From an uncultured Gammaproteobacteria bacterium (GTDB lineage: Bacteria > Pseudomonadota > Gammaproteobacteria > Steroidobacterales > UBA11654), in the NCBI GenBank assembly GCA_902595845.1, contig CACJRN010000008.1:2153-66152 (forward strand): DNA of 64,000 nucleotides, given 5' to 3'. Both the position numbers and the translations under genes were made by a program. Under the pieces are notes generated by a model that saw only the letters and a list, made by a program, of their open reading frames with translations, was not told the origin of the DNA and ran no database searches. Each line of letters opens with the position of its first letter. The stretch's first letter is position 1. Of the stretch, positions 1,416 through 59,657 are shown in pieces.

Positions 1416-1826
1416 GTTACCGACTATAAACCTTATGATGAGACTGCTATAGCTGGTGAAGAAATTACTGAGGCATTAAAAAAAGCACAATCAAAGAACA
1501 GGTATGTTCTTCTTCAAATGGGTGGTAACTGGTGTCCTGATTGCAGGACATTGGGAGAATACTTTTCAAGGCCTGATATTAAAAAATGGTTGGATGAGAG
1601 AGTGATCTTGGTCTCAGTTGATGTTGGTGAGTGGGATAGAAATCTCGATATTGTAGAAGAATATGAAAATCCGATCAGTGAAGGCATCCCTGCTCTGGTA
1701 TTGCTTAATTCAAATAACGAGGTCATGTTTGCCACTCTTGCCGGTGAGCTTGCGAGTGCGAGAAGCATGAGCAAAAATGACCTAATTGACTGGCTAAATA
1801 AAAAAATTGAGCCCTTGATTGATTAG
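1362..1826 (+). CDS. exported thioredoxin-fold protein
   Basis: 154 aa with a signal peptide and the redox motif W-C-P-D-C (GGNWCPDCRTL). ATGA overlap with the upstream ORF. Confidence 0.65.
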   Translation: MKKLILISAIFFSFNGWSVTDYKPYDETAIAGEEITEALKKAQSKNRYVLLQMGGNWCPDCRTLGEYFSRPDIKKWLDERVILVSVDVGEWDRNLDIVEEYENPISEGIPALVLLNSNNEVMFATLAGELASARSMSKNDLIDWLNKKIEPLID

Positions 1827-1830
1827 GATC

Positions 1831-3996
1831 ATGTCCCGATTCTTTTCGACGATCCTTCTTCTCATTCCTTCAATATCTTTTTCGAATGGAGCAGAGTTAT
1901 TCAGCATCCACTGTAGTGGATGTCATGCATCAATTGAGATCCAATCAAACTGGTCTGAGCTATCCGAAGATGATTTTCTCAGCATAACATCCGAAACCAT
2001 GCCGCCCGATGCTGCAGGCTCACTTGAGGAAGATGAGTATTTAGCCATCAAAGATTACATCTTTGATCTTAAATATTCAGGATCTATCCAAAAGATAGAA
2101 AAATATCCCACAACTCAGTCATTCAAAGTCCCAAATAAAGAAAGTCGGCCTGAAATACCTTGGCAACATTTTGGTGGAAAAATAAATGCACAAAGGTACT
2201 CGCCCATTGATCTGATAGACAATGAAAATGTAAAAGATTTAGAAATTGCATGGCGATGGAAATCAAAGGAATTTGGTAATTTTCAAGAAATAAGAAATGT
2301 ATCGATGCCAATAATGAGAAATGGATTGGTTTTCATAGGAGTGGGATCGACCAGGAGCATCGCTGCAATTGATGCAGAGAATGGAGAGACAGTATGGATC
2401 TGGAATCCAAATGAGGGGGATCGCTTCTCAAGTGCTGCTAGAAAAGATTCAGGCAAAGGTGTTGCATATTTTGAAGATGGGAATGGAAAGAAAAGAGTCA
2501 TCGCCATCACTCCAGGTTATCAATTGGTCAGCCTGGATGCCGATACTGGCATTGCTGACAAAAACTTTGGTGTGAATGGAATTGTGGATCTAACCATAGG
2601 CATGAGAACCTCCGACACTCAAGAATTAGATGTTGGATCAACATCGCCTCCACTGGTTATTAATGATGTCATTGTTGTGGGATCGGCTCATAAAGCAAGT
2701 TTTGCGCCCATATCCAAGGCAAATGTCAAAGGAGATGTTAGAGGATATGACGTTCACAATGGAAACTTACTCTGGACCTTTAAAACCATACCCAGCAAAG
2801 GTGAATATGGATATGATACTTGGTTGAATGGATCAGCTGATTACACCGGAAACGCGAGTGTCTGGGCACCGATGTCTGCTGATGAGGATCTTGGTCTAGT
2901 CTATCTGCCAATTGAGTCAGCAACAGGGGATCGTTATGGAGGAGATCGTCCAGGTGATAATCTTTTTTCAAGCTCACTTGTTGCGGTGAATGTAAAAACT
3001 GGGAAATTGCAATGGCATTTTCAAATTGTTCATCATGATATCTGGGATTACGATAATTCATCTGCACCAATAGTGGCCGATCTCAATGAAAAGAAAGTTG
3101 TCATTCAATTAACGAAACAATCTTATGCTTTTGTCTTTGATAGAGAAACAGGTGAGCCTTATTGGCCAATTTATGAAGTTGAGGTTCCAAAATCTGATGT
3201 TCCAGGAGAGTGGACATCTCCCACTCAACCGATTCCGAGCCTGCCCGAGGCATATGATCGAAGTGGTGTAAGCAGGGATGATCTCATTGATTACACTCCA
3301 GAGATCAGTGAAGCAGTAGACAATCTCATTAAAGACTTCAGATTGGGTCCATTATATACACCGCCATCATTGGCAGATTCTACAGATGGAACAAAAGGCA
3401 CACTCTCACTGCCATTTCCAACAGGCGGTTCAAACTGGGAAGGAGGCGCTTATGACCCTGAAACAAAATTTTTGTATGTCCCCTCTCAAACCAAGCTCGC
3501 ACTGCTTTCATTAAAAGACGGCGGCGGCGCCACTGATATTAGCTACATTGCTTCTCCCTCACCTAAGCTTGAGGTCTTTGGCATACCCCTTGCAAAACCA
3601 CCTTGGGGTCGTATTACCGCAATTGACATGAACACAGGCAAGATAGAATGGAATATAGCCAATGGTGATACGCCTGAGTCGATCGTTGATAATCCATATC
3701 TTGAAGGAATAACAATACCAAGAACTGGCAAAGCAACTCGGGCAGGTATACTTCTCACTAAAACTTTGCTCTTCGCAGGTGAAGGATTTGGTGGGGCTCC
3801 TGTTTTTAGAGCTCATGACAAATCAACTGGGCAAATCATCACCGAGATTGTTTTACCTGGCTCTCAATCAAGCCCTCCGAGTACCTATATGATTAACAAT
3901 AGACAATTTATTATAATGACAACATCTGATGGTAAGTCTCCGGCAGAACTGATTGCCCTTTCTTTGCCAGAGCTAAGTAACAATGGATCACATTAA
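1831..3996 (+). CDS. PQQ-dependent dehydrogenase (glucose/quinate/shikimate-type propeller) with N-terminal cytochrome c domain
   Basis: Start trimmed from TTG 1819 to ATG 1831 (MSRFFSTILLLIPSISFS signal). Haem motif C-S-G-C-H plus a distal Met (ETMPP). Propeller hallmarks are present (AWRWKS, HHDIWDYD, repeated W-motifs). Confidence 0.75.
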   Translation: MSRFFSTILLLIPSISFSNGAELFSIHCSGCHASIEIQSNWSELSEDDFLSITSETMPPDAAGSLEEDEYLAIKDYIFDLKYSGSIQKIEKYPTTQSFKVPNKESRPEIPWQHFGGKINAQRYSPIDLIDNENVKDLEIAWRWKSKEFGNFQEIRNVSMPIMRNGLVFIGVGSTRSIAAIDAENGETVWIWNPNEGDRFSSAARKDSGKGVAYFEDGNGKKRVIAITPGYQLVSLDADTGIADKNFGVNGIVDLTIGMRTSDTQELDVGSTSPPLVINDVIVVGSAHKASFAPISKANVKGDVRGYDVHNGNLLWTFKTIPSKGEYGYDTWLNGSADYTGNASVWAPMSADEDLGLVYLPIESATGDRYGGDRPGDNLFSSSLVAVNVKTGKLQWHFQIVHHDIWDYDNSSAPIVADLNEKKVVIQLTKQSYAFVFDRETGEPYWPIYEVEVPKSDVPGEWTSPTQPIPSLPEAYDRSGVSRDDLIDYTPEISEAVDNLIKDFRLGPLYTPPSLADSTDGTKGTLSLPFPTGGSNWEGGAYDPETKFLYVPSQTKLALLSLKDGGGATDISYIASPSPKLEVFGIPLAKPPWGRITAIDMNTGKIEWNIANGDTPESIVDNPYLEGITIPRTGKATRAGILLTKTLLFAGEGFGGAPVFRAHDKSTGQIITEIVLPGSQSSPPSTYMINNRQFIIMTTSDGKSPAELIALSLPELSNNGSH

Positions 3997-28629: not shown

Positions 28630-30630
28630 ATGGTCAAAGATGAACACTCAGCCCTAAAGGCATCTTTCGAGAGAGCGCTCGAATTTTTGAATGCTGGTGA
28701 TCATGTCATGGCGGAAAAGATCTGCAGAAAAGCAATTAAAGAAATCTCCAACAGTGATCCAAACATACAGGTTCTGCTTGCTGTTTCCCTGATTAGACAA
28801 GGACGCTCAGGATCAGCTGTGAAACGATTAAAGCACACACTGAGAGCATTTCCAGATTTCCCGCCTGCTCATGAAGAATTAGGCAATGCGTTGTTGGCTC
28901 AAAATAAACCCGAAAATGCGATTGAAGCATTTAAAAAAGTACTCCAACTCAAACCAGATAATGCCGGTGCAATGATTAAACTCGGGAAAATATATAAACA
29001 ACTTGGAAGAAATGATGAGGCCAATGAATTTTATAAATCTGCACTCTCACTTGAGCCAACAAAAGAACGTCTTGCAACAGCTGCACAAGCATTCGCAAGG
29101 GGAGAAATAGAAAAAGCTGAAAAAATTACCAGAGAGACTTTAAGAGAGTATCCAGATGATGTGGACGGATTGAGATTACTGGCAAGCATTGCAAATAAGA
29201 TGGAACAAAGGCCCGATGCGATTACCCTTCTAGAAAGGGCAGTTCAAATCAAGCCAAGATTCGCAGGTGCATGGGCTGATCTAGCTGAAACATATACCGA
29301 ATCTGAGGATTATGGAAAGGCATTGGATGCAGTTCAAAGAGTGATCAAACTTCAGCCAAAATTACCATTCGGACATATGATCAGAGGAAGTATTCTAGGT
29401 AAAATGGATGATCATGAAGGCTCAATAAAATCCTATAAGAACGCTCTCGAAATAGAGCCCCAGCACATTGGAAGCAACATGGGCTTGGGCAATATTCTCA
29501 AGACCATTGGTCGATATGATGATGCTGTCGCTTCGTATAAAAAATGCATTGAAGCACAACCCATGTTCTCAGAAGCATATTGGAGTCTTGCGAATCTAAA
29601 AACATATACATTTGAAGAGTCAGAAATAGAGAAGATGGAGGAGCATATTCAGAATCCTGATCTCCCCCCAACAAGCAAAGCTTTTTTTCATATCGCGCTA
29701 GCCAACGCAAAAGAAAAACAAAAGAAATTCGGTGAGGCCTGGTATCACTTTTTCACAGGGAATGAACTGAGGAGGCAAACTGAAATCTATGATTCTGTGA
29801 CAACCCAAGTGACTCATGAAGCCTTGATGGAAACATTCACCAAAGACTTTGTTAAGACCACCAAAGGAAAGGGTTGTCAAAGTGATGCGCCAATATTTAT
29901 TCTTGGACTGCCAAGGTCAGGCTCAACATTGGTTGAGCAAATTCTGGCAAGCCATAGCAAAGTCGAAGGCACGAGAGAGTTGCCTGACATATCCCTGCTT
30001 GGAAGAAAGTTGACAAAAATAAAACCACCTGGGATCAAATATCCTGATGCTGTCAAACACATGACCGATGAAGAAATGACTGAATTTGGTGAAGATTATC
30101 TCAAAACATCGATGAGATACAGAACAGACAGGCCCTACTTCATTGATAAAATGCCCAATAACTTTGCACACATTGGATTCATTAAAACGATTCTTCCAAA
30201 TGCAAAAATCATCAATGCAAAAAGACATCCATTAGACAGCTGTGTCAGCTCATTCAAGCAATTATTTTATAAAGGTCAGTCTTGGAGCTATGACCTCTTT
30301 GAAATAGGAGAGTACTATCTTGAATATATTCGTTTGATGAACCACTGGCATGAAATATACCCAGGCGACATCTATGACATCAGTTATGAAAGCCTGATTG
30401 AAAATCAAGAAGAAGAAACAAAAAAACTAATTGATTACTGTGGTCTTGATTGGGAAGAAGGATGCCTAAAGTTCTATGAAAATAAACGATCGGTTAATAC
30501 CGCGAGCTCAGAACAAGTGAGACAACCAATCTATAAAGGTGCAATGTTCGCATGGAAGAATTATGAATCTGAATTGGGTCCACTGATTGAGATTTTAGAG
30601 CCCGTACTCGACGAGATACCAAAAGCTTAG
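28630..30630 (+). CDS. TPR-repeat protein fused to a PAPS-type sulfotransferase domain
   Basis: 666 aa. The N-terminal ~400 aa are TPR-like repeats. The C-terminal domain has a 5'-PSB-like motif LGLPRSGSTLVEQIL and a downstream RHPLDS motif. Confidence 0.8.
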   Translation: MVKDEHSALKASFERALEFLNAGDHVMAEKICRKAIKEISNSDPNIQVLLAVSLIRQGRSGSAVKRLKHTLRAFPDFPPAHEELGNALLAQNKPENAIEAFKKVLQLKPDNAGAMIKLGKIYKQLGRNDEANEFYKSALSLEPTKERLATAAQAFARGEIEKAEKITRETLREYPDDVDGLRLLASIANKMEQRPDAITLLERAVQIKPRFAGAWADLAETYTESEDYGKALDAVQRVIKLQPKLPFGHMIRGSILGKMDDHEGSIKSYKNALEIEPQHIGSNMGLGNILKTIGRYDDAVASYKKCIEAQPMFSEAYWSLANLKTYTFEESEIEKMEEHIQNPDLPPTSKAFFHIALANAKEKQKKFGEAWYHFFTGNELRRQTEIYDSVTTQVTHEALMETFTKDFVKTTKGKGCQSDAPIFILGLPRSGSTLVEQILASHSKVEGTRELPDISLLGRKLTKIKPPGIKYPDAVKHMTDEEMTEFGEDYLKTSMRYRTDRPYFIDKMPNNFAHIGFIKTILPNAKIINAKRHPLDSCVSSFKQLFYKGQSWSYDLFEIGEYYLEYIRLMNHWHEIYPGDIYDISYESLIENQEEETKKLIDYCGLDWEEGCLKFYENKRSVNTASSEQVRQPIYKGAMFAWKNYESELGPLIEILEPVLDEIPKA

Positions 30631-31488: not shown

Positions 31489-33873
31489 ATGTCGACACTT
31501 ACAAATACACAAAAAGTAACGAGTGTTGCTGCAGCAGTTACCGCTGCATTGGCCGGTTACACAACAGCACAAGCTCAGCTTGAAGAAATTGTTGTTACAG
31601 CGACAAAGAAGTCTGAAAGCCTTCAAGACATCGCAGGTAGCGTACAAGCAATCACTGAGGATACCCTGAAAAAAGCCAATATCGTTGGTATGGAAGATTA
31701 TGCAAAACTCATCCCGAGCATGAGTTATGTAAATTACACGCCAGGTACAGGTAAAGTTTATTTTAGAGGAATTGCAGATGATAACGGCACGTTCATCTCT
31801 GAGGAATCCTCTGCTCTATATCTAAATGAGCAACCAATAACTCAAGCTGGTATGGCAGCTGACGTTAGAATGGTTGATGTCAATCGAATAGAGGCATTAG
31901 CAGGTCCACAAGGAACGCTTTATGGTTCAAGCGCACAATCAGGTGCAATCAGAATCATTACCAATAAGCCTGATACATCTGAATTCTCTGCTACTGGGGA
32001 CATCACACTTAAAATGATGGACGAAGGTGAAAGCAGCTATGATGTAAGCGGTGTTGTCAATATTCCTATCTCTGACAACTTCGCAATCAGAGCTGTTGGT
32101 TTCACAGCAGAAGATGGTGGATTCGTAGACGTTGTTGATGGTAACAGTGCTAGATTTGGACTCAACAATAACTCAACGTTTAACCCAAGTGTTGTAAGAG
32201 ATGATGTCAACTCATTCAAATCAACTGGTGGTCGTTTGGCTGGTCAGTGGGATATGGATGATGGTTATTATCTTGTTGAATTCGCAACTCAAAATAACAG
32301 CGCTGAAGGATATAGCTACTTTGATCCAAGTGTGGGTGATCTTCAAAGGGTATCATTCTATGATGAGCCAAGAGACGATGATTGGACACAAATTGCACTG
32401 ACAATTGAAAAAGACCTTGGTTGGGCAACGCTAATCTCAGCAACTTCATACTTTGATCGCGACGTTTTCTACGTCAATGACAGAAGCACGTACTCAATGT
32501 ATTTTGGTACGTTCTGCTACTACTATAATGGTTATGCAAGCACATCAAGATATTGCTTCCAGCCAGTAGGAGTGAGCTATGCTTATAATGATGTCCCAGG
32601 ATTCAATATCCTTGATCAGTGGAACAGTTCAAAAACACAAGAGTTTAGACTTTCCAACCAAACTGATGATCTAGATTGGATCGTTGGACTTTTCTACCAA
32701 GAAAGGGAAGAAGGATGGGATTTCGAAACGGAAACTCACAACTACAGAAATTCACTAGGTTATCAAAACCAAATGAACTATGTGGCAACTTATCTTCCAG
32801 ATAGATTGCCAGTTGCTCCGAATGATATCTGGTGGGCTTCATATGATAGAACTGAGTGGGAAACCATGGCGGTCTTCGGTGAAGTAAACTACCGATTCGA
32901 TGAGAACTGGGAACTGACTCTTGGTGGTCGTTACTTTGACCGTGAAGCCAAAAAGAATTACTGGGTAGAAAATCCTAAAGGCGCTCTAGCGGCAGACGGA
33001 ATACTACCTAAGAATAAAGCAGATAACCCAGGTGACAGTGACTTCGTACCTAAGGTCAGCATTAAATACAATGTAGACGATGATACGATGGTCTATGGTC
33101 TTTACTCTGAAGGTTATCGACCAGGTGGTGTAAACCGAGGACGATCAACAGCTCCATTCTATCCTGATGTTTATGAGTCAGACTATCTTGAGAACACTGA
33201 GATAGGTCTGAAGACAGTTCTGATGGATGGCAACATGCAGTTGAATGTCACTTACTTCTCAATGGATTGGAATAACTATCAGTTAGAAGTTGTTGATCCA
33301 AGTAACTTGCCTTGTGGATCACCTGAAGCATATCCTGCGCCTCAATGTGGTCAGCCATGGCAAAAAGTGGTTGCCAATGTTGGAGAAGCTTCATCTGATG
33401 GACTTCAGCTAGAAACATTGAATGCGGTTGGAGACAACATGGAAATTGGATTCAATGCACAATGGGTGACAGCAGAACTTGATGAGGATCTCTCAGATGG
33501 TTCAGCACCAGCTGGCTCAAGATTGCCTCAGGTTCCTGAGTTCAAAGCGAATCTTTGGTTAGATACTTCAATTGATACTCAAATGATGGGTGCAAATGAA
33601 GGATTCTTCAGAGCCTCAGTATCATATACTGGCGACACAGTGAGTGCGGTACAACCGGGTTCTCAATTCATTCAAAAATCATATAAGAGTATTGATCTTA
33701 AATATGGTTTATTGGGTGACGATTGGGAAGTTAACCTCTTCATCAACAACGTAAGTGATGAAAGAGCGGATATCGCAGTGAACGACTGGTACTTTGATTT
33801 CTTCTTTGGGAATGCACGTCAATACGTGAATAGACCAAGAGAGGTTGGAGTCAGATACGTGAAACGCTGGTAA
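31489..33873 (+). CDS. TonB-dependent outer-membrane receptor
   Basis: 794 aa with a signal peptide, TonB-box/plug start (LEEIVVTATKK), plug motif (GPQGTLYGSSA), a long beta-barrel, and an aromatic C-terminus (RYVKRW). Confidence 0.9.
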   Translation: MSTLTNTQKVTSVAAAVTAALAGYTTAQAQLEEIVVTATKKSESLQDIAGSVQAITEDTLKKANIVGMEDYAKLIPSMSYVNYTPGTGKVYFRGIADDNGTFISEESSALYLNEQPITQAGMAADVRMVDVNRIEALAGPQGTLYGSSAQSGAIRIITNKPDTSEFSATGDITLKMMDEGESSYDVSGVVNIPISDNFAIRAVGFTAEDGGFVDVVDGNSARFGLNNNSTFNPSVVRDDVNSFKSTGGRLAGQWDMDDGYYLVEFATQNNSAEGYSYFDPSVGDLQRVSFYDEPRDDDWTQIALTIEKDLGWATLISATSYFDRDVFYVNDRSTYSMYFGTFCYYYNGYASTSRYCFQPVGVSYAYNDVPGFNILDQWNSSKTQEFRLSNQTDDLDWIVGLFYQEREEGWDFETETHNYRNSLGYQNQMNYVATYLPDRLPVAPNDIWWASYDRTEWETMAVFGEVNYRFDENWELTLGGRYFDREAKKNYWVENPKGALAADGILPKNKADNPGDSDFVPKVSIKYNVDDDTMVYGLYSEGYRPGGVNRGRSTAPFYPDVYESDYLENTEIGLKTVLMDGNMQLNVTYFSMDWNNYQLEVVDPSNLPCGSPEAYPAPQCGQPWQKVVANVGEASSDGLQLETLNAVGDNMEIGFNAQWVTAELDEDLSDGSAPAGSRLPQVPEFKANLWLDTSIDTQMMGANEGFFRASVSYTGDTVSAVQPGSQFIQKSYKSIDLKYGLLGDDWEVNLFINNVSDERADIAVNDWYFDFFFGNARQYVNRPREVGVRYVKRW

Positions 33874-52714: not shown

Positions 52715-53134
52715 TTAGTCATGGCACGATGAACAATCAAGACTCTTGCAAGCTTGATGATTTTTAAAATGTGCGTAACAAACTAAAATAGATCCTGTCA
52801 GTGTTGTAATCTTCTCACCTGATTCGCCAAGAAAGCTTTCACCTAAAATAACAGCTGAAACTAAAATCAATAACCCTCCAATTCCTATGAAAAGAAAAGA
52901 AAGAATCTTATGATTCTTATAGCCCAGTCCCAATGCATAAAGACTCACTGGAATCGCTATCAACAGAATGATCTTATGAATCAGTTCATTATCGATTGAT
53001 GTAAAAAGCACCCCAGAGGTTACAATGAAAAAAGATGGCATGAAAAAGCAATGGATAGCGCATGCCAACGATATAGTCGCTGCAAACTTATCTGTCTTGA
53101 GTTGAGTTTTATAGTCCATTTCTTTTTTTACCAT
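52715..53134 (-). CDS. MerC-domain-like four-helix membrane protein with Cys/His termini (putative metal transporter)
   Basis: 139 aa. N-terminal helix motif LACAIHCFFMP. C-terminal tail HFKNHQACKSLDCSSCHD. Co-directional with and 105 nt downstream of the His-rich receptor. Confidence 0.5.
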   Translation of the reverse strand: MVKKEMDYKTQLKTDKFAATISLACAIHCFFMPSFFIVTSGVLFTSIDNELIHKIILLIAIPVSLYALGLGYKNHKILSFLFIGIGGLLILVSAVILGESFLGESGEKITTLTGSILVCYAHFKNHQACKSLDCSSCHD

Positions 53135-53168: not shown

Positions 53169-53239
53169 AAAAGTGATTCCCCCAACAAATTTTAGGAGGG
53201 GTGAAACGTTTAAAAATGCAAGGGGAATCTAGGGGATTA

Positions 53240-55597
53240 CTAAAACTTCATATTGAAGCGTAGCCCTATATTTCTCCCTGGCAAAGGCACTTGATCTTTC
53301 ACAAAAGATGAATGATTTCGTGCAACTTCATCGAGTATGTTTTTAGCATACAAAGTCACAAGCATCTCACTGTCTCCAGACATAATTGGAATGCTCTGAG
53401 AGACTTTCATGTCAAGCATGTTGTAAGACTCAGTTGGTGTCTCATTCAATGATAGTTTGTTTTGAGACTTTACATTCCTTAGAGTCAGGGAAGCACTGTA
53501 ACCTTCTTTTGCATATTCGATTGAGAAAATATGCCTTCTTGGATTAATCCTTGGGACATATCCTCCGTCTTTAAACTTCGCATTGACATAATCCATGCCA
53601 TAAGAGAAAGACATAGAGCCGCCATTAAGATTAATGGAACGACCCAGTTCAAACTCATATCCATTGAATTCTGCATCCTTTTGCATGTAGTTTGAAAGAA
53701 TCAACCCACCATGATCATCATGTCCATCGTGATCGTCATGATCATCGTGTCCATCATGGTCATCATGATCTTCATCGTGATGATCCTCTTCATGCATCTC
53801 ATGCTCCTCTTCAGATTCATCTAGCAGGTAGATATAGTCATCCACGTCATTTCTGAAGATTGTTGCGGTTGCAAAGAAACCATTGTTTTCATAATCAAAT
53901 GTGAGATCAATGTTATTTGAAGTCTCTGATTTCAAAGTGACATCACCCACTTCAAAGCGTCCAGTGGCTAAATGCGCTCCATTCATGAAAAGCTCAACAG
54001 CAGATGGTGCTCTTTTAACACTCGCCAAACCAAGGTTCACAACCGTATTTTCATTGAGCTCTCTATCAATGGATAGAGCAATGCTGGTTTCATTGCGATC
54101 GATGTCATAAGCTTCCATTTCTTCTTCATCATGGTGCTCATCATCATGTTCTTCATCATGATCCTCGTCGTGATGCTCATCTTCATCATGATGTTCTTCT
54201 TCCTCGTGATGGGCCACTGTACCTTTGCGATTCACACGATCGTGTCGAATACCCAAATGAAGATCCAAGCCCATTAAGCTTGTACCGACATAATAACCAA
54301 TCATCTTTTCAGAAGAATCCACAGGATTCATGAAAGCTTCTGCTCCAATAATGGAGACATCTTCATTCATGTTTTGTAAAACGAGTTTCTGAGTGAGTGA
54401 ATCATCGCCGAAATCCAATATCAGACCAAATTCATCCGACTCATTGCTGAAGACTGTTGGCCCTTCTTCATGTCCATGACCATCGTGATCATCATCATGC
54501 TCTTCATCATGCTCTTCACCTTCATGGCCTTCTTCTTCTGCATGTTGCTCAGTCAAAGAGTAATCAGAGTTTCTGTAGTAATATCTCATGTTGTTTAGAC
54601 TGTCATTATTGAAGATATAAGAACCCTCAATATTGAATACATCAGAGTCAGTGGTAGAGAATATCCTTTCTCCTTCATGCTCATCATGGCCTCCATCGTG
54701 ATCATCATCATGATCTTCATCGTGGTCTTCATCATGATCATCGTGGCCGCCATGACCTTCATGGCCTTCGCCATGATAAGGAATGCCATAAACACTTTCA
54801 GTATTTAGATAAGAAGCTCCGAAGTAACCCCAATCACCAGTAGTTGAAAGGCCCAGTCGGTGTGTTTTTGATTCAAAATCTGAGTTTTCAAGAAAGCCCA
54901 TGTCTTCATCATGATCTTCGTCGTGGTCTTCCTCGTGACCTTCTTCATGCTCTTCTGAATGAATGACTGCCCCTTTGGGAATATCATAATTCTCAAGCGA
55001 GCTGTCTTTGTAAGCATATGAAAGATTCAAGCCGCCCAAATTTTCTTTGTAACTGAATCCACCGATCTTTCCATCGTTTGCTGACTGCGCTTCTAGGTCA
55101 ATTCTTAAATCTCTATCAGCAAAATCTTCTCTTGCAATGGTGTCATCAACAATATTCACAATCCCACCAATTGCACCATTAGAATACATCAGTGATGATG
55201 GGCCTCTAATGATTTCAATTTGCTTGACTGCGTTTAAGTCGACTTCATTCACATGGTCTATACCAATCCCTGACATGTCACGAACGACTAGGCCGTTGTT
55301 TAAGACCTTTACTCTGCTGCCTGACATGCCTCGAATGATTGGTTGTCCAACTGCTGCACCATAGTCTGCAGATGAAACACCCAATAAACTATCGATGGTC
55401 TCACCCAAGCTCTGAGTTGAGTTAGTCGCTAGCTCTTCTTCACTTAGGATATGAATTGGATCATTAGCCGCATCATCGCTATGGGAAACATATGATGACG
55501 TGACTGTGATCTCCTCAATGGAATCTTGTGCAATCAGTCCTGTTGAAATGATGGTGGAAATAAGTACCACCATATATAAATTAATATGCGTTCTCAT
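53240..55597 (-). CDS. TonB-dependent receptor with five His/Asp/Glu-rich inserts (putative divalent-metal receptor, ZnuD-like concept)
   Basis: 785 aa with a signal peptide, TonB-box/plug (IEEITVTSS, IRGPSSLMYSNGAIGG), a barrel, and C-terminal FNMKF. The inserts are at residues ~213-233, 275-310, 351-378, 463-494 and 594-631. Confidence 0.85.
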   Translation of the reverse strand: MRTHINLYMVVLISTIISTGLIAQDSIEEITVTSSYVSHSDDAANDPIHILSEEELATNSTQSLGETIDSLLGVSSADYGAAVGQPIIRGMSGSRVKVLNNGLVVRDMSGIGIDHVNEVDLNAVKQIEIIRGPSSLMYSNGAIGGIVNIVDDTIAREDFADRDLRIDLEAQSANDGKIGGFSYKENLGGLNLSYAYKDSSLENYDIPKGAVIHSEEHEEGHEEDHDEDHDEDMGFLENSDFESKTHRLGLSTTGDWGYFGASYLNTESVYGIPYHGEGHEGHGGHDDHDEDHDEDHDDDHDGGHDEHEGERIFSTTDSDVFNIEGSYIFNNDSLNNMRYYYRNSDYSLTEQHAEEEGHEGEEHDEEHDDDHDGHGHEEGPTVFSNESDEFGLILDFGDDSLTQKLVLQNMNEDVSIIGAEAFMNPVDSSEKMIGYYVGTSLMGLDLHLGIRHDRVNRKGTVAHHEEEEHHDEDEHHDEDHDEEHDDEHHDEEEMEAYDIDRNETSIALSIDRELNENTVVNLGLASVKRAPSAVELFMNGAHLATGRFEVGDVTLKSETSNNIDLTFDYENNGFFATATIFRNDVDDYIYLLDESEEEHEMHEEDHHDEDHDDHDGHDDHDDHDGHDDHGGLILSNYMQKDAEFNGYEFELGRSINLNGGSMSFSYGMDYVNAKFKDGGYVPRINPRRHIFSIEYAKEGYSASLTLRNVKSQNKLSLNETPTESYNMLDMKVSQSIPIMSGDSEMLVTLYAKNILDEVARNHSSFVKDQVPLPGRNIGLRFNMKF

Positions 55598-55643
55598 GAA
55601 GTACCTCCTGTAACGAACGTTTTAAATTAAAATTAGATTTAAT

Positions 55644-55916
55644 TTAAATTTTTGGAGGTGCTCTGGACTCAAATAAGTGGTTAGTTGCTGTGTAGAGGTA
55701 ACTTTGTTTGAATTCTTCAACAATAACAGGACTCAGTTCGACCCTTTTTATCGGATCACTCAAGTCGGTCTCAATGACCTTATTATTGTTGAATGGACAT
55801 TCATATTCATGCCCATGATTGTCATCGGCATGCACGTGCGAGACTGCATCAAGTGATACAGTTGTCACAAAGAAAAATGTAGCCAATAAGGCGCTGAATG
55901 TTCTTATGTTATGCAT
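55644..55916 (-). CDS. small exported His-rich protein (possible periplasmic metal-binding partner)
   Basis: 90 aa. A signal peptide is followed directly by SHVHADDNHGHEYEC. It ends 46 nt upstream of the receptor gene on the same strand. Confidence 0.5.
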   Translation of the reverse strand: MHNIRTFSALLATFFFVTTVSLDAVSHVHADDNHGHEYECPFNNNKVIETDLSDPIKRVELSPVIVEEFKQSYLYTATNHLFESRAPPKI

Positions 55917-56010
55917 TTATTGGCATTCTATTCTAAAGCAATCGGTTTTGAAATCATTTTATGCCTGATAGAGCTTATTCAGCCATCCTCAAGCAATGAA
56001 GTCTGGAAAT

Positions 56011-56541
56011 TTATGCTGATTCATTTTCATTGATTTGGATATCAATGCTCACCTCGCCAGAGAGACCTTTGACTGCATCATTCACAGAATCAACGATGTC
56101 TTCTGTGAGCGATTGAATATCTTCATCGCTTTTTTCACTCTGCACGTTGACACTGATATTGACACTTAAATCTTTCATGACATCGCCGATATCATCAGCA
56201 ACATCGTCAATGATTTCTGTTATGGTTTCTTCAATTGAATCAGAATCATCTGATTTCATTTTGATGATAATTTTTCGATCTTCTTCATGTCCAGGCATGG
56301 GTTTTTTCATCTTTTTCATGACGATATGTTTCTCGCCGTCATCGGTCAAAAAGACCATATTCTTATCGCCAAGAGACATCTCACCCATTTCCTTGTCAAT
56401 CCAAGCCATCGGTGTTTGAGGCGTTGGTGGTGATTCATGCATGCGGTGATGCGGCCTGTAATCATCCTTTTGACTGATAATAAATGCCGCAGCGATTATG
56501 CCCACAGCTATGATTGTGGAACCCACTATTGTTTCTCTCAT
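56011..56541 (-). CDS. membrane-anchored acidic protein, unknown function
   Basis: 176 aa. N-terminal helix (GSTIIAVGIIAAAFII), then HHRMHE, then a highly acidic repetitive tail (DDVADDIGDVMKD..., EDIVDSVNDAVKG...). Confidence 0.5.
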   Translation of the reverse strand: MRETIVGSTIIAVGIIAAAFIISQKDDYRPHHRMHESPPTPQTPMAWIDKEMGEMSLGDKNMVFLTDDGEKHIVMKKMKKPMPGHEEDRKIIIKMKSDDSDSIEETITEIIDDVADDIGDVMKDLSVNISVNVQSEKSDEDIQSLTEDIVDSVNDAVKGLSGEVSIDIQINENESA

Positions 56542-58566: not shown

Positions 58567-58628
58567 ATGCCTTGATTTATTGAATAGTCGATTTAAAGTG
58601 AGTGGAGTTTAACAAGATATTCATCGAA

Positions 58629-59657
58629 ATGGCGAAAATATTTAAAGCGACAACGGCTGGCAGCTTACCTAAGCCCAATTGGCTGGCTGAAACTGAAAAG
58701 CTCTGGCCTGCTTGGGTGGATTCGGGCGATTCTCTCATTGAGAAAAAAAAGGAATCGACTGCCATGTGGATCAAGGAGCAGGAGAAATCAGGCATAGAAA
58801 TCATCTCTGAAGGTGAGCAATTCAGAATCCATTTTGTCCATGGTTTCTTAGAGACCATTGAAGGGATCAATTGGGATAAAAAGACACAAATGGGGATTCG
58901 AAATGATCGTTATGTTGTTGAAGTGCCAACTGTGACAGATCCATTAAGAAAGGCAGGTAGTGTTCATATTGAGGAAGCAAAGTTTCTAAGATCCAATACA
59001 GAAAAGCTCACTAAATTTACACTCCCTGGACCCATGACAATAGCTGATACCATTGCGAATGATTACTATGCCAATAAGGAAGAAATGGCCATGGAATTTG
59101 CAAAACTCTTGAATGATGAGGCCAAATCATTGTGTGAAGTGGGTATCGATATCATTCAATTTGATGAACCTGCTTTCAATAGTTTTTTAAAAGAAAGTAC
59201 CGAATGGGGAATGGACGCAATGGAAATGGCAATTGATGGTCTTGATTGTAAAACTGCAGTTCATATTTGTTATGGCTATGGCATTGAAGAAAACCTCAAT
59301 TGGAAAAAAACATTGGGCGATCAATGGAGGCAATATGAAGAACTTTTCCCCGCCATCAATCAAAGCAATATTGATCAAGTCTCACTCGAATTTGCAGGCT
59401 CCAAAGTCCCCGCTGAATTGATGAGGCTGCTGCCTGATAAAGAGATCATGGTTGGTGTTATCTCTGTTGTTAAAGATCACATCGAAACTGCAGAAGAGGT
59501 TGAAATGAATATCATTGCTGCACTCGATCACGTTGAAAAAGAACGACTTATACCTTGTACTAATTGCGGAATGGCTCCAATCTCAGTAGAGACAGCAAAA
59601 CAAAAACTAAAAGCTCTGGGAGAAGGAGCGATGAGAGCTGAGAAGAGAATCAGTTAA
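58629..59657 (+). CDS. single-domain (core) MetE-family homocysteine methyltransferase-like protein
   Basis: Start trimmed from 58602 to ATG 58629. About 342 aa, so only the C-terminal catalytic half of the ~750-aa MetE. Zn-ligand contexts are VHICYGYG and PCTNCGMAP. Confidence 0.7.
   Translation: MAKIFKATTAGSLPKPNWLAETEKLWPAWVDSGDSLIEKKKESTAMWIKEQEKSGIEIISEGEQFRIHFVHGFLETIEGINWDKKTQMGIRNDRYVVEVPTVTDPLRKAGSVHIEEAKFLRSNTEKLTKFTLPGPMTIADTIANDYYANKEEMAMEFAKLLNDEAKSLCEVGIDIIQFDEPAFNSFLKESTEWGMDAMEMAIDGLDCKTAVHICYGYGIEENLNWKKTLGDQWRQYEELFPAINQSNIDQVSLEFAGSKVPAELMRLLPDKEIMVGVISVVKDHIETAEEVEMNIIAALDHVEKERLIPCTNCGMAPISVETAKQKLKALGEGAMRAEKRIS

Follow-up and report, generated by a model that had tools for sequence, protein, structure and literature searches.

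A probable ZnuD-type trace-metal uptake module with a five-tract TonB-dependent receptor and a putative arrest-peptide leader in marine Gammaproteobacteria

We analysed a window of 64,000 nucleotides (nt) from an uncultured gammaproteobacterium (assembly GCA_902595845.1, contig CACJRN010000008.1, positions 2,153 to 66,152), in which a TonB-dependent receptor carrying five His- and acid-rich tracts is encoded behind a short leader gene and ahead of a MerC-like gene. Our reading is that this locus is a ZnuD-type uptake module for a divalent trace metal, made up of the receptor, an arrest-peptide leader and the MerC-family protein, and we put the probability of this reading at roughly 0.6. Zinc would be the most likely substrate, at about even odds.

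The receptor had been noticed in a preliminary description made from the sequence alone, and the 785-residue open reading frame (ORF), the five insert strings, their coordinates and the count of 43 His given there all matched ours exactly. The receptor features on which the argument draws are as follows, with positions in the window and residues in amino acids (aa).

53240..55597, minus strand: TonB-dependent receptor ORF, 785 aa, with signal peptide, TonB box EEITVTSS, plug and 22-strand barrel; ZnuD/haem-receptor clade
54899..54961, minus strand: tract 1, aa 213-233, 5 His; predicted extracellular loop L2
54668..54775, minus strand: tract 2, aa 275-310, 10 His; predicted loop L3
54464..54547, minus strand: tract 3, aa 351-378, 7 His; predicted loop L4, with an invariant TEQH-x-E motif just before it
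54116..54211, minus strand: tract 4, aa 463-494, 10 His; predicted loop L6, at the position of ZnuD loop 6
53705..53818, minus strand: tract 5, aa 594-631, 11 His; predicted loop L8
55253..55258, minus strand: codons of D114-H115 in the apical loop of the plug, mapping to ZnuD zinc ligands D99/H100; invariant
53972..53974, minus strand: codon of H542 (motif NGxHLATGRFE), mapping to ZnuD zinc ligand H499; invariant

Pfam recognised a Plug domain (8.9e-17, aa 47-146) and a TonB-dependent barrel (1.3e-22), and the translation ends in NMKF, so that the plug, the 22 modelled strands, the EEITVTSS box and the C-terminal aromatic residue (Phe) of the TonB-dependent receptor superfamily are all present. 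The whole protein contains 53 His, 91 Asp, 85 Glu, 50 Lys plus Arg and 0 Cys. The tracts, about 155 residues altogether and separated from their neighbours by 40-99 residues, hold 43 of these His (5+10+7+10+11). This content is far above chance, since the second TonB-dependent receptor of the window (31489-33873, plus strand; Plug and barrel domains), taken as a control for composition, holds 1 His in 794 aa. Tandem Repeats Finder detected only degenerate, codon-phase arrays in the tract DNA (periods of 9-27, 69-90% matches). A simple tandem-repeat origin was thereby ruled out, as the preliminary description had fairly judged from the irregularity of the DNA, and the tracts are best seen as imperfect, slippage-prone codon repeats that are likely to have grown by slippage-type expansion.

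To place the tracts in the barrel, an AlphaFold2 model of the receptor was built from an alignment and its strands were assigned with DSSP. The mean predicted local distance difference test score (pLDDT) was 61.9; it is low because the tracts and part of the plug score below 50, while the barrel strands lie mostly at 70-90. DSSP returned 22 barrel strands in which every even-to-odd connection, that is every periplasmic turn, is 2-7 residues long, and all five tracts fall in odd-to-even connections (L2, L3, L4, L6 and L8), none of them in a periplasmic turn. Loops L3, L6 and L11 of the model could be anchored on the solved structure of ZnuD. ZnuD loop-3 cluster 1 (HSHEYDDCH) lines up with the beginning of tract 2, and H275 takes the place of ZnuD H241, so that the loop-3 His/Asp/Glu clusters typical of ZnuD have their counterpart here; tract 4 stands directly before the strand aligned after ZnuD loop 6, and L11 aligns with ZnuD loop 11. 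An outward orientation of all five tracts is therefore well supported within the model, as the ZnuD structure independently backs the numbering of strands and loops. The preliminary description had supposed from the spacing that each insert occupies a loop of its own, and the model agrees in predicting five separate, disordered and strongly acidic extracellular loops.

ZnuD was the closest characterised relative by sequence and by fold, which bears out the comparison drawn in the preliminary description. It was the top NCBIfam family for the receptor (NF038289, 195.8 bits), the best match in searches of the PDB (1e-34 with the single sequence, 6e-58 with a profile) and the best Foldseek match to the receptor model (E 1.8e-32, template modelling scores 0.67/0.74); haem receptors and OprC came next. 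The high-affinity buried zinc site of ZnuD consists of D99, H100, E340 and H499 (PMC4557270), and its loop-3 cluster 1 binds cadmium in the crystal. Three of the four zinc ligands map onto D114, H115 and H542 of the receptor, which are invariant in an alignment of 32 homologues. The numbering of the ZnuD PDB chain is shifted by a constant 14-residue tag offset, which was checked at three independent sites.

Homologues were sought among 5.8 billion proteins at E ≤ 1e-10, and more than 4,800 were found. Among the 120 top-ranking hits, at about 50-95% identity, almost every one has five H/D/E/G tracts, and these occupy the same five positions. A scan of genomes, limited to one genome per species, placed relatives in at least 527 stretches, and the 80 best loci, on which our locus comparisons are based, belong to SAR86, to SAR92/Porticoccaceae, with the isolate HTCC2207 among them, to Luminiphilus and to further marine gammaproteobacterial metagenome-assembled genomes (MAGs); the nearest, L003, is a Mediterranean MAG with 88% identity. 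In the 32-sequence alignment the length and sequence of the tracts drift freely between relatives, while their flanks are strongly conserved (GIPFHGEGH...HEGERIF, SLTEQHAEE...EGPT, DETEEEHE...HGGLI). Five tracts were counted in 33 of 70 full-length receptors of the related genomes, four in 16 and six in 5. Glu makes up about 32% of the tracts, His 27%, Asp 23% and Gly 10%, and one His follows another at a spacing of 3 or 4 residues in 61% of cases.

When 1.84 billion cluster representatives were searched with a profile, the family widened to 23,382 relatives, of which the best 133 full-length sequences carry 0-6 tracts, a single tract in loop 3 being the commonest arrangement. By this sequence survey the window receptor stands at the high end of a continuum and is typical of its marine clade, not unique. 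The preliminary description had taken the five inserts for an extreme adaptation; as a peculiarity of this receptor that view did not survive, five tracts being a conserved trait of a large marine family. Two relatives illustrate the range. One distant relative, P0231 (868 aa), has one 171-residue H/D/E tract in loop 3 and 66 His, and this tract far exceeds every tract of the window receptor in length. P0026 (703 aa, 64% identical) is a decayed variant: the five loop positions are kept, but the tracts are shortened and have Pro, Asp or Glu where most of their His would stand, which could mean a natural loss of function or an altered specificity.

Directly upstream of the receptor lies the leader gene, whose features and junction with the receptor gene are these.

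55644..55916, minus strand: leader ORF, 90 aa, with an export signal, the His-rich putative sensor motif SHVHADDNHGHEYEC, in which C40 is the only Cys, and RAPP near the C-terminus
55653..55664, minus strand: RAPP codons AGA GCA CCT CCA, a putative ribosome-arrest site; ACCUCC is the 5' arm of a predicted anti-Shine-Dalgarno stem
55599..55663, minus strand: predicted junction RNA structure, with an outer stem (55654-55663 with 55599-55608) and an AU-rich inner hairpin across the leader stop codon
55604-55608, minus strand: receptor Shine-Dalgarno sequence GGAGG, paired with the leader Pro codons in the predicted outer stem

Across the window and the 80 related loci, the leader was the only strongly conserved neighbour of the receptor, and an ORF of this type (about 90 aa) was found directly upstream and on the same strand in 60-63 of the roughly 77 loci with upstream sequence. 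The leaders share a mean identity of only about 20% (alignment A2), yet C40, A86 and P88 never vary in it, and conservation reaches at least 90% at H27, R85 and P87. By inspection, every aligned leader begins with a hydrophobic segment, read as an export signal, and conserved His residues precede the Cys. The window leader ends in R85-A86-P87-P88 and two further residues; all 63 leaders contain the corresponding [RQ]A[PS]P, which follows the Cys motif at 40-43 residues and, in 59 leaders, precedes the end by 2-4. The Cys motif is CXXC in 42 of the 63 and a single Cys in the other 21, the window leader (ECPF) among them. Among the ORFs in all six frames of the window, the leader alone has R[AG]PP near its stop codon. 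RAPP motifs arrest ribosomes (PMC10951233, PMC12992588, PMC9426467).

The Pfam family DUF2946 (PF11162) gave no match to the window leader at E ≤ 1, and neither Pfam as a whole nor NCBIfam returned a significant one. Weak DUF2946 matches appeared in 5 of 30 leader relatives (best 9.4e-4), and of 106 database relatives of the leader none had PF11162 and none was annotated. Taken together, these sequence comparisons argue that the leader belongs to an unrecognised, divergent branch of the DUF2946 (CruR/CutF) arrest-peptide family. In five SAR86 loci (L057, L064, L066, L079 and L080) the called leader ORF and the 3' end of a zinc-type alcohol dehydrogenase gene overlap; in these loci the leader either starts at a later ATG or is co-transcribed with the alcohol dehydrogenase gene.

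The gap between leader and receptor is 46 nt in the window, 32-52 nt in one type of leader and 68-91 nt in Porticoccaceae. In the predicted fold of the window junction, ACCUCC of the Pro codons pairs with GGAGGU of the receptor Shine-Dalgarno sequence (minimum free energy -15.6 kcal/mol, z = -3.36), and 0 of 200 shuffles were as stable. Over 61 loci the predicted pairing probability of the Shine-Dalgarno sequence averaged 0.83 as against 0.72 in composition-matched shuffles (Wilcoxon p = 1.6e-7), its predicted partner being the leader 3' end in 56 of the 61; when the footprint of a stalled ribosome was forced to be single-stranded, pairing fell to 0.53. In Porticoccaceae a conserved stem (CCUCUAAA/UUUAGAGG) runs from the leader stop region to the Shine-Dalgarno sequence and includes one compensatory change from C-G to U-A. 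These folds give real but modest support to a Shine-Dalgarno-sequestering stem of the CutF type, which would couple the leader to the receptor in cis.

Upstream of the leader, a consensus scan found one site that is kept in L003.

55925..55952, minus strand: promoter-like site immediately before the leader, with TTCAAA and TAGAAT 16 nt apart

Promoter-like matches in the scanned region showed no excess over shuffle expectation, and the site is hence weak evidence; L003 was aligned to it by eye. Two overlapping TAGAAT candidates for a -10 element (55925-55935) end about 9-14 nt before the leader ATG at 55916, in L003 as in the window, and no Shine-Dalgarno sequence is visible before this ATG; this mRNA may accordingly be leaderless, or close to it.

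A search for Zur, Fur and NikR boxes upstream of 55916, as envisaged in the preliminary description, found none: the best matches (13/23, 11/19 and 24/28, respectively) were unremarkable, lying in the top 0.3-1% of all window positions when about 390 positions had been tested. Zur boxes were also scored over the 63 loci, where L033 alone was convincing and the excess at scores of at least 11/15 probably comes from AT-rich promoters. In L033 a perfect Zur-type palindrome, GTTATATTATAAC, stands 5 nt before the leader ATG, and the other (background) 160-nt windows of the loci scored lower. This locus belongs to AG-319-E21, a single-cell genome labelled Woeseiaceae, in which the palindrome (L033:4890-4910, CGTTATATTATAACA) heads a leader-receptor-MerC operon. 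Control of the window receptor is probably exerted through the leader and not through a repressor box.

Downstream of the receptor, the window contains the following two features.

52715..53134, minus strand: MerC-family membrane protein, 139 aa (Pfam MerC, E 5.8e-24)
53179..53198, minus strand: putative terminator-like hairpin between the receptor and the MerC-like gene, from a consensus scan

The MerC-like gene begins 106 nt after the receptor, past the hairpin. MerC proteins are inner-membrane importers of thiophilic metal ions, and the MerC-like homologues share an invariant C-x2-HC in the first transmembrane segment and a C-terminal Cys/His cluster. A MerC homologue was found within the fetched receptor flanks in 12 of the 80 loci, which represent several lineages, and in five loci, the window included, it stands 66-112 nt downstream of the receptor. 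From sequence and position, the MerC-like protein is plausible as an inner-membrane metal partner of the receptor, not as a universal one. The other genes that flank the receptor in these loci (hisB/hisH, mutY, RNase R, rlmB, alcohol dehydrogenase and others) were considered as further operon partners and rejected, because they are housekeeping genes that vary with the lineage.

Several other genes of the window deserve mention. Upstream of the leader, an ORF of 176 aa (56011-56541, minus strand) encodes an N-terminal membrane helix, an HHRMH motif and an acidic tail rich in Asp, Ser and Ile; it has no family match and is conserved only in the closest relative, L003. At 58602-59657 (plus strand), 3 kb from the receptor, lies a gene for a 351-aa protein with a Meth_synt_2 domain, the catalytic domain of cobalamin-independent methionine synthase, which is a zinc-enzyme family. 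A zinc-requiring enzyme of the MetE type is upregulated in a Caulobacter zur mutant. The proximity of the Meth_synt_2 gene to the receptor is not kept in other loci. The second receptor gene at 31489-33873 (plus strand) sits downstream of a gene for a TPR-sulfotransferase protein (28630-30630), and a 725-aa PQQ-dependent dehydrogenase (1819-3996, plus strand; Pfam PQQ, E 2e-166) belongs to ordinary metabolism and is unrelated to the receptor.

From these observations we infer the following working model of the module. The five His-rich loops would act as a low-affinity, multi-site 'fishing net' for divalent transition-metal ions, concentrating the ion from seawater or stripping weak organic ligands of it, and might in this way provide the high-capacity metal-harvesting surface suggested in the preliminary description. 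The ion would then be handed to a buried, ZnuD-like site formed by the plug apex (D114, H115) and barrel H542, and TonB-driven movement of the plug would free it into the periplasm, from where, in the window genome, the MerC-family Cys/His protein would carry it over the inner membrane. When the metal is scarce, the ribosome would stall at the C-terminal RAPP of the leader and mask the Pro codons, leaving the receptor Shine-Dalgarno sequence free and the receptor translated. Metal bound to the His/Cys motif of the exported nascent peptide would relieve the stall, so that the stem re-forms and translation is turned off. We chose this direction of control, from scarcity through stalling to expression, because of the behaviour of CruR and the logic of an uptake system.

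In favour of zinc are the homology to ZnuD, the conserved Asp/His/His site, the mixed His/Cys ligands of the leaders and the Zur-type palindrome of L033. Against the proposed module as a whole, or against zinc as its substrate, several observations have to be set. The receptor fails membership of the ZnuD family (195.8 bits against a cut-off of 950 for NF038289) and is only about 20% identical to ZnuD, and on this sequence evidence it is a distant relative in the ZnuD/haem-receptor clade, no orthologue of ZnuD. The fourth ZnuD ligand, E340, has no mapped equivalent, a sub-query with the tracts deleted having aligned with no more of ZnuD than its C-terminal portion; in the TEQH-x-E motif, which tops strand 7, the invariant E350 or E354 are only candidates for its place. 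The mean pLDDT of 61.9 is low and the tracts themselves are unmodelled. The Shine-Dalgarno sequence is frequently paired in shuffled sequences too (0.72, as compared with 0.83), because the Pro codons are inherently complementary to GGAGG, and RNAalifold found no consensus structure in the main group of leaders (cluster c1, which includes that of the window), because the AU-rich spacers do not align; the stem is thus argued from the folds of individual sequences, at a modest margin over the shuffles. The window leader is without the second Cys of CXXC, no Zur box was found in the window and only 1 of the 63 loci has one, and no more than about 15% of loci have MerC beside the receptor. Finally, CruR and CutF, to which the leader is related and which have been characterised, sense copper, not zinc.

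The copper-sensing of CruR and CutF raises the main rival explanation, which we hold to be rather unlikely. Under it, Cu(II) or a Cu chelate would enter through the module to supply haem-copper oxidases and other copper enzymes, and the leader would be a CruR-type copper sensor. The leader has the CruR/CutF architecture, with CXXC in 42 of the 63 cases; CruR represses its TonB-dependent transporter under copper and responds little to Fe or Zn; co-fitness connects DUF2946 genes with copper receptors, and upstream ORFs ending in RAPP are widespread before TonB-dependent receptors and copper genes. The Cys clusters of the MerC-like protein would also suit soft metals. The Irving-Williams series favours Cu(II) on His-rich peptides, and His/carboxylate peptides such as the tracts would bind Cu(II) most tightly, more so than zinc. 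On the other side, the receptor lies outside the known copper-receptor families. The OprC/NosA copper receptor family (TIGR01778) scored 55.4 bits against a cut-off of 472, and with 0 Cys in the protein as well an OprC-type copper site was excluded. The CrtA copper-chelate transporter was rejected too: the downstream gene is MerC-like, with no PepSY_TM neighbour and no PepSY-like cluster among the recurrent neighbours, and the PDB chains of TonB-dependent receptors other than ZnuD, among which the CrtA entry was not singled out, matched at the level of the plug only. The buried D/H/H ligands fit the zinc site of ZnuD instead, the leaders add conserved His, CutF-like proteins are not all copper-specific, and one locus has a Zur box.

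Import of nickel or cobalt, or a broad scavenging of divalent metals, appears improbable. His-rich tracts do bind Ni and Co, the window leader is His-rich with one Cys, and His-only CutF-like leaders adjoin Ni/Co transporters of the HupE/UreJ type; yet no NikR box was found upstream of 55916, no HupE/UreJ, CbiMNQO, urease or hydrogenase genes were seen near the locus, and the closest characterised homologue transports zinc. We regard it as very improbable that the tracts are no capture device at all. They would then be a polyanionic brush (for Ca/Mg, or as a shield against phage, grazers or copper) or neutral expansions on a receptor that may import something else, such as haem. The free variation of tract length and sequence, the degenerate codon repeats in the DNA and the loss of most tract His in P0026 would all fit this, and the haem-receptor families are the next-best matches and share with ZnuD a clamp of plug His and barrel His. 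Their scores fell far under the cut-offs, however (TIGR01785, 104.5 against 323.75 bits; TIGR01786, 92.1 against 316.85 bits), and haem/haemoglobin receptors were rejected. Moreover, relatives ranging from about 41% to 95% identity and drawn from several orders retain the five positions and the H/D/E composition, which argues for selection; the His/Asp clusters of ZnuD bind metal, and a leader with metal-ligand residues heads the operon.

A ZnuD-type module thus remains our preferred reading. Within it, we tentatively suggest that the leader could be a zinc-responsive, or at least non-copper, nascent-peptide sensor with His/Cys ligands, which would gate receptor translation directly, its own Pro codons serving as the anti-Shine-Dalgarno sequence that is masked or exposed. 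It would replace Zur-type control in streamlined ocean bacteria such as SAR86 and SAR92 and make the five-loop net their main route for zinc that is free or weakly complexed in seawater. Few heterotrophs of the surface ocean are as abundant as SAR86 and SAR92/Porticoccaceae, and how such cells are supplied with Zn, Cu, Co and Ni at picomolar free concentrations is poorly known. The locus is a conserved and abundant module that has so far been annotated as a 'TonB-dependent receptor' and a 'hypothetical protein'. If our reading is true, the reach of RAPP arrest-peptide regulation would widen to include a ZnuD-like receptor, and possibly a non-copper metal, and the tracts may serve to mark metal stress in metatranscriptomes and metaproteomes.

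The arrest-peptide systems nearest to the leader have been studied in Bordetella pertussis and Rhodobacter capsulatus (PMC9426467, PMC9973294, PMC12992588, bioRxiv 10.1101/2025.02.05.636593). In CruR (Bp2923) of B. pertussis, copper acting via the CXXC is reported to relieve arrest at RAPP and to shut off the downstream TonB-dependent transporter (PMC9426467), and the arrest was later demonstrated in vitro (PMC12992588). For CutF of R. capsulatus, stalling has been proposed to melt a stem-loop over the next gene's ribosome-binding site, and published surveys describe CutF-like leaders with Cys, His or mixed motifs, not all of them specific for copper. Like these DUF2946 (PF11162) proteins, the window leader is a small exported product of a first gene with a RAPP/Pro-rich motif near its end, and it may have a counterpart of their Cys/His motif at a fixed spacing from RAPP (45 ± 2 residues in CruR, 40-43 in the leaders here). 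It shares with CruR the position at the head of a TonB-dependent transporter operon and with CutF the stem-loop, predicted in the window, that shields the downstream ribosome-binding site. Its ligands are a single Cys and four His, and the receptor that follows is ZnuD-like, neither CrtA- nor OprC-like. Rho-dependent termination, by which CruR works over an intergenic gap of 162 nt, appears unlikely by analogy in the window because the gap there is 46 nt.

As outer-membrane TonB-dependent metal importers, CrtA (BfrG) and OprC/NosA resemble the window receptor in general function, and CrtA operons are often headed by cruR. However, PepSY_TM follows crtA in more than 75% of loci and no such partner accompanies the window receptor; CrtA, which has no poly-His loops, imports Cu chelates by way of a cavity in which one His is essential, and OprC relies on a Cys/Met site, where the window receptor has 0 Cys. 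ZnuA and the Caulobacter receptors ZnuK and ZnuL follow the same chemical logic, with flexible His/acidic loops or receptors that scavenge free zinc; ZnuA is a periplasmic binding protein, and ZnuK and ZnuL are Zur-regulated. A limited literature search found no ZnuD-like receptor with multiple poly-His loops and none headed by a RAPP leader, and to our knowledge no characterised receptor has five such His-rich loops, so that the preliminary description was right to place this one beyond the single-loop examples. The closest comparison is with ZnuD of Neisseria meningitidis (PDB 4RDR/4RDT/4RVW; NF038289), the top match in sequence and structure, which has the same fold, belongs to the same clade and is the source of the 'fishing-net loop'. 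Both receptors have an Asp-His pair at the plug apex and a barrel His, and the loop-3 clusters of His/Asp/Glu in ZnuD stand where tract 2 begins. The clusters of ZnuD are two in number, short and confined to one loop, and ZnuD is repressed by Zur and comes from host-associated pathogens, whereas the window receptor carries 43 His in five long tracts on five loops, has a putative arrest-peptide leader in place of a Zur box and comes from free-living marine plankton.

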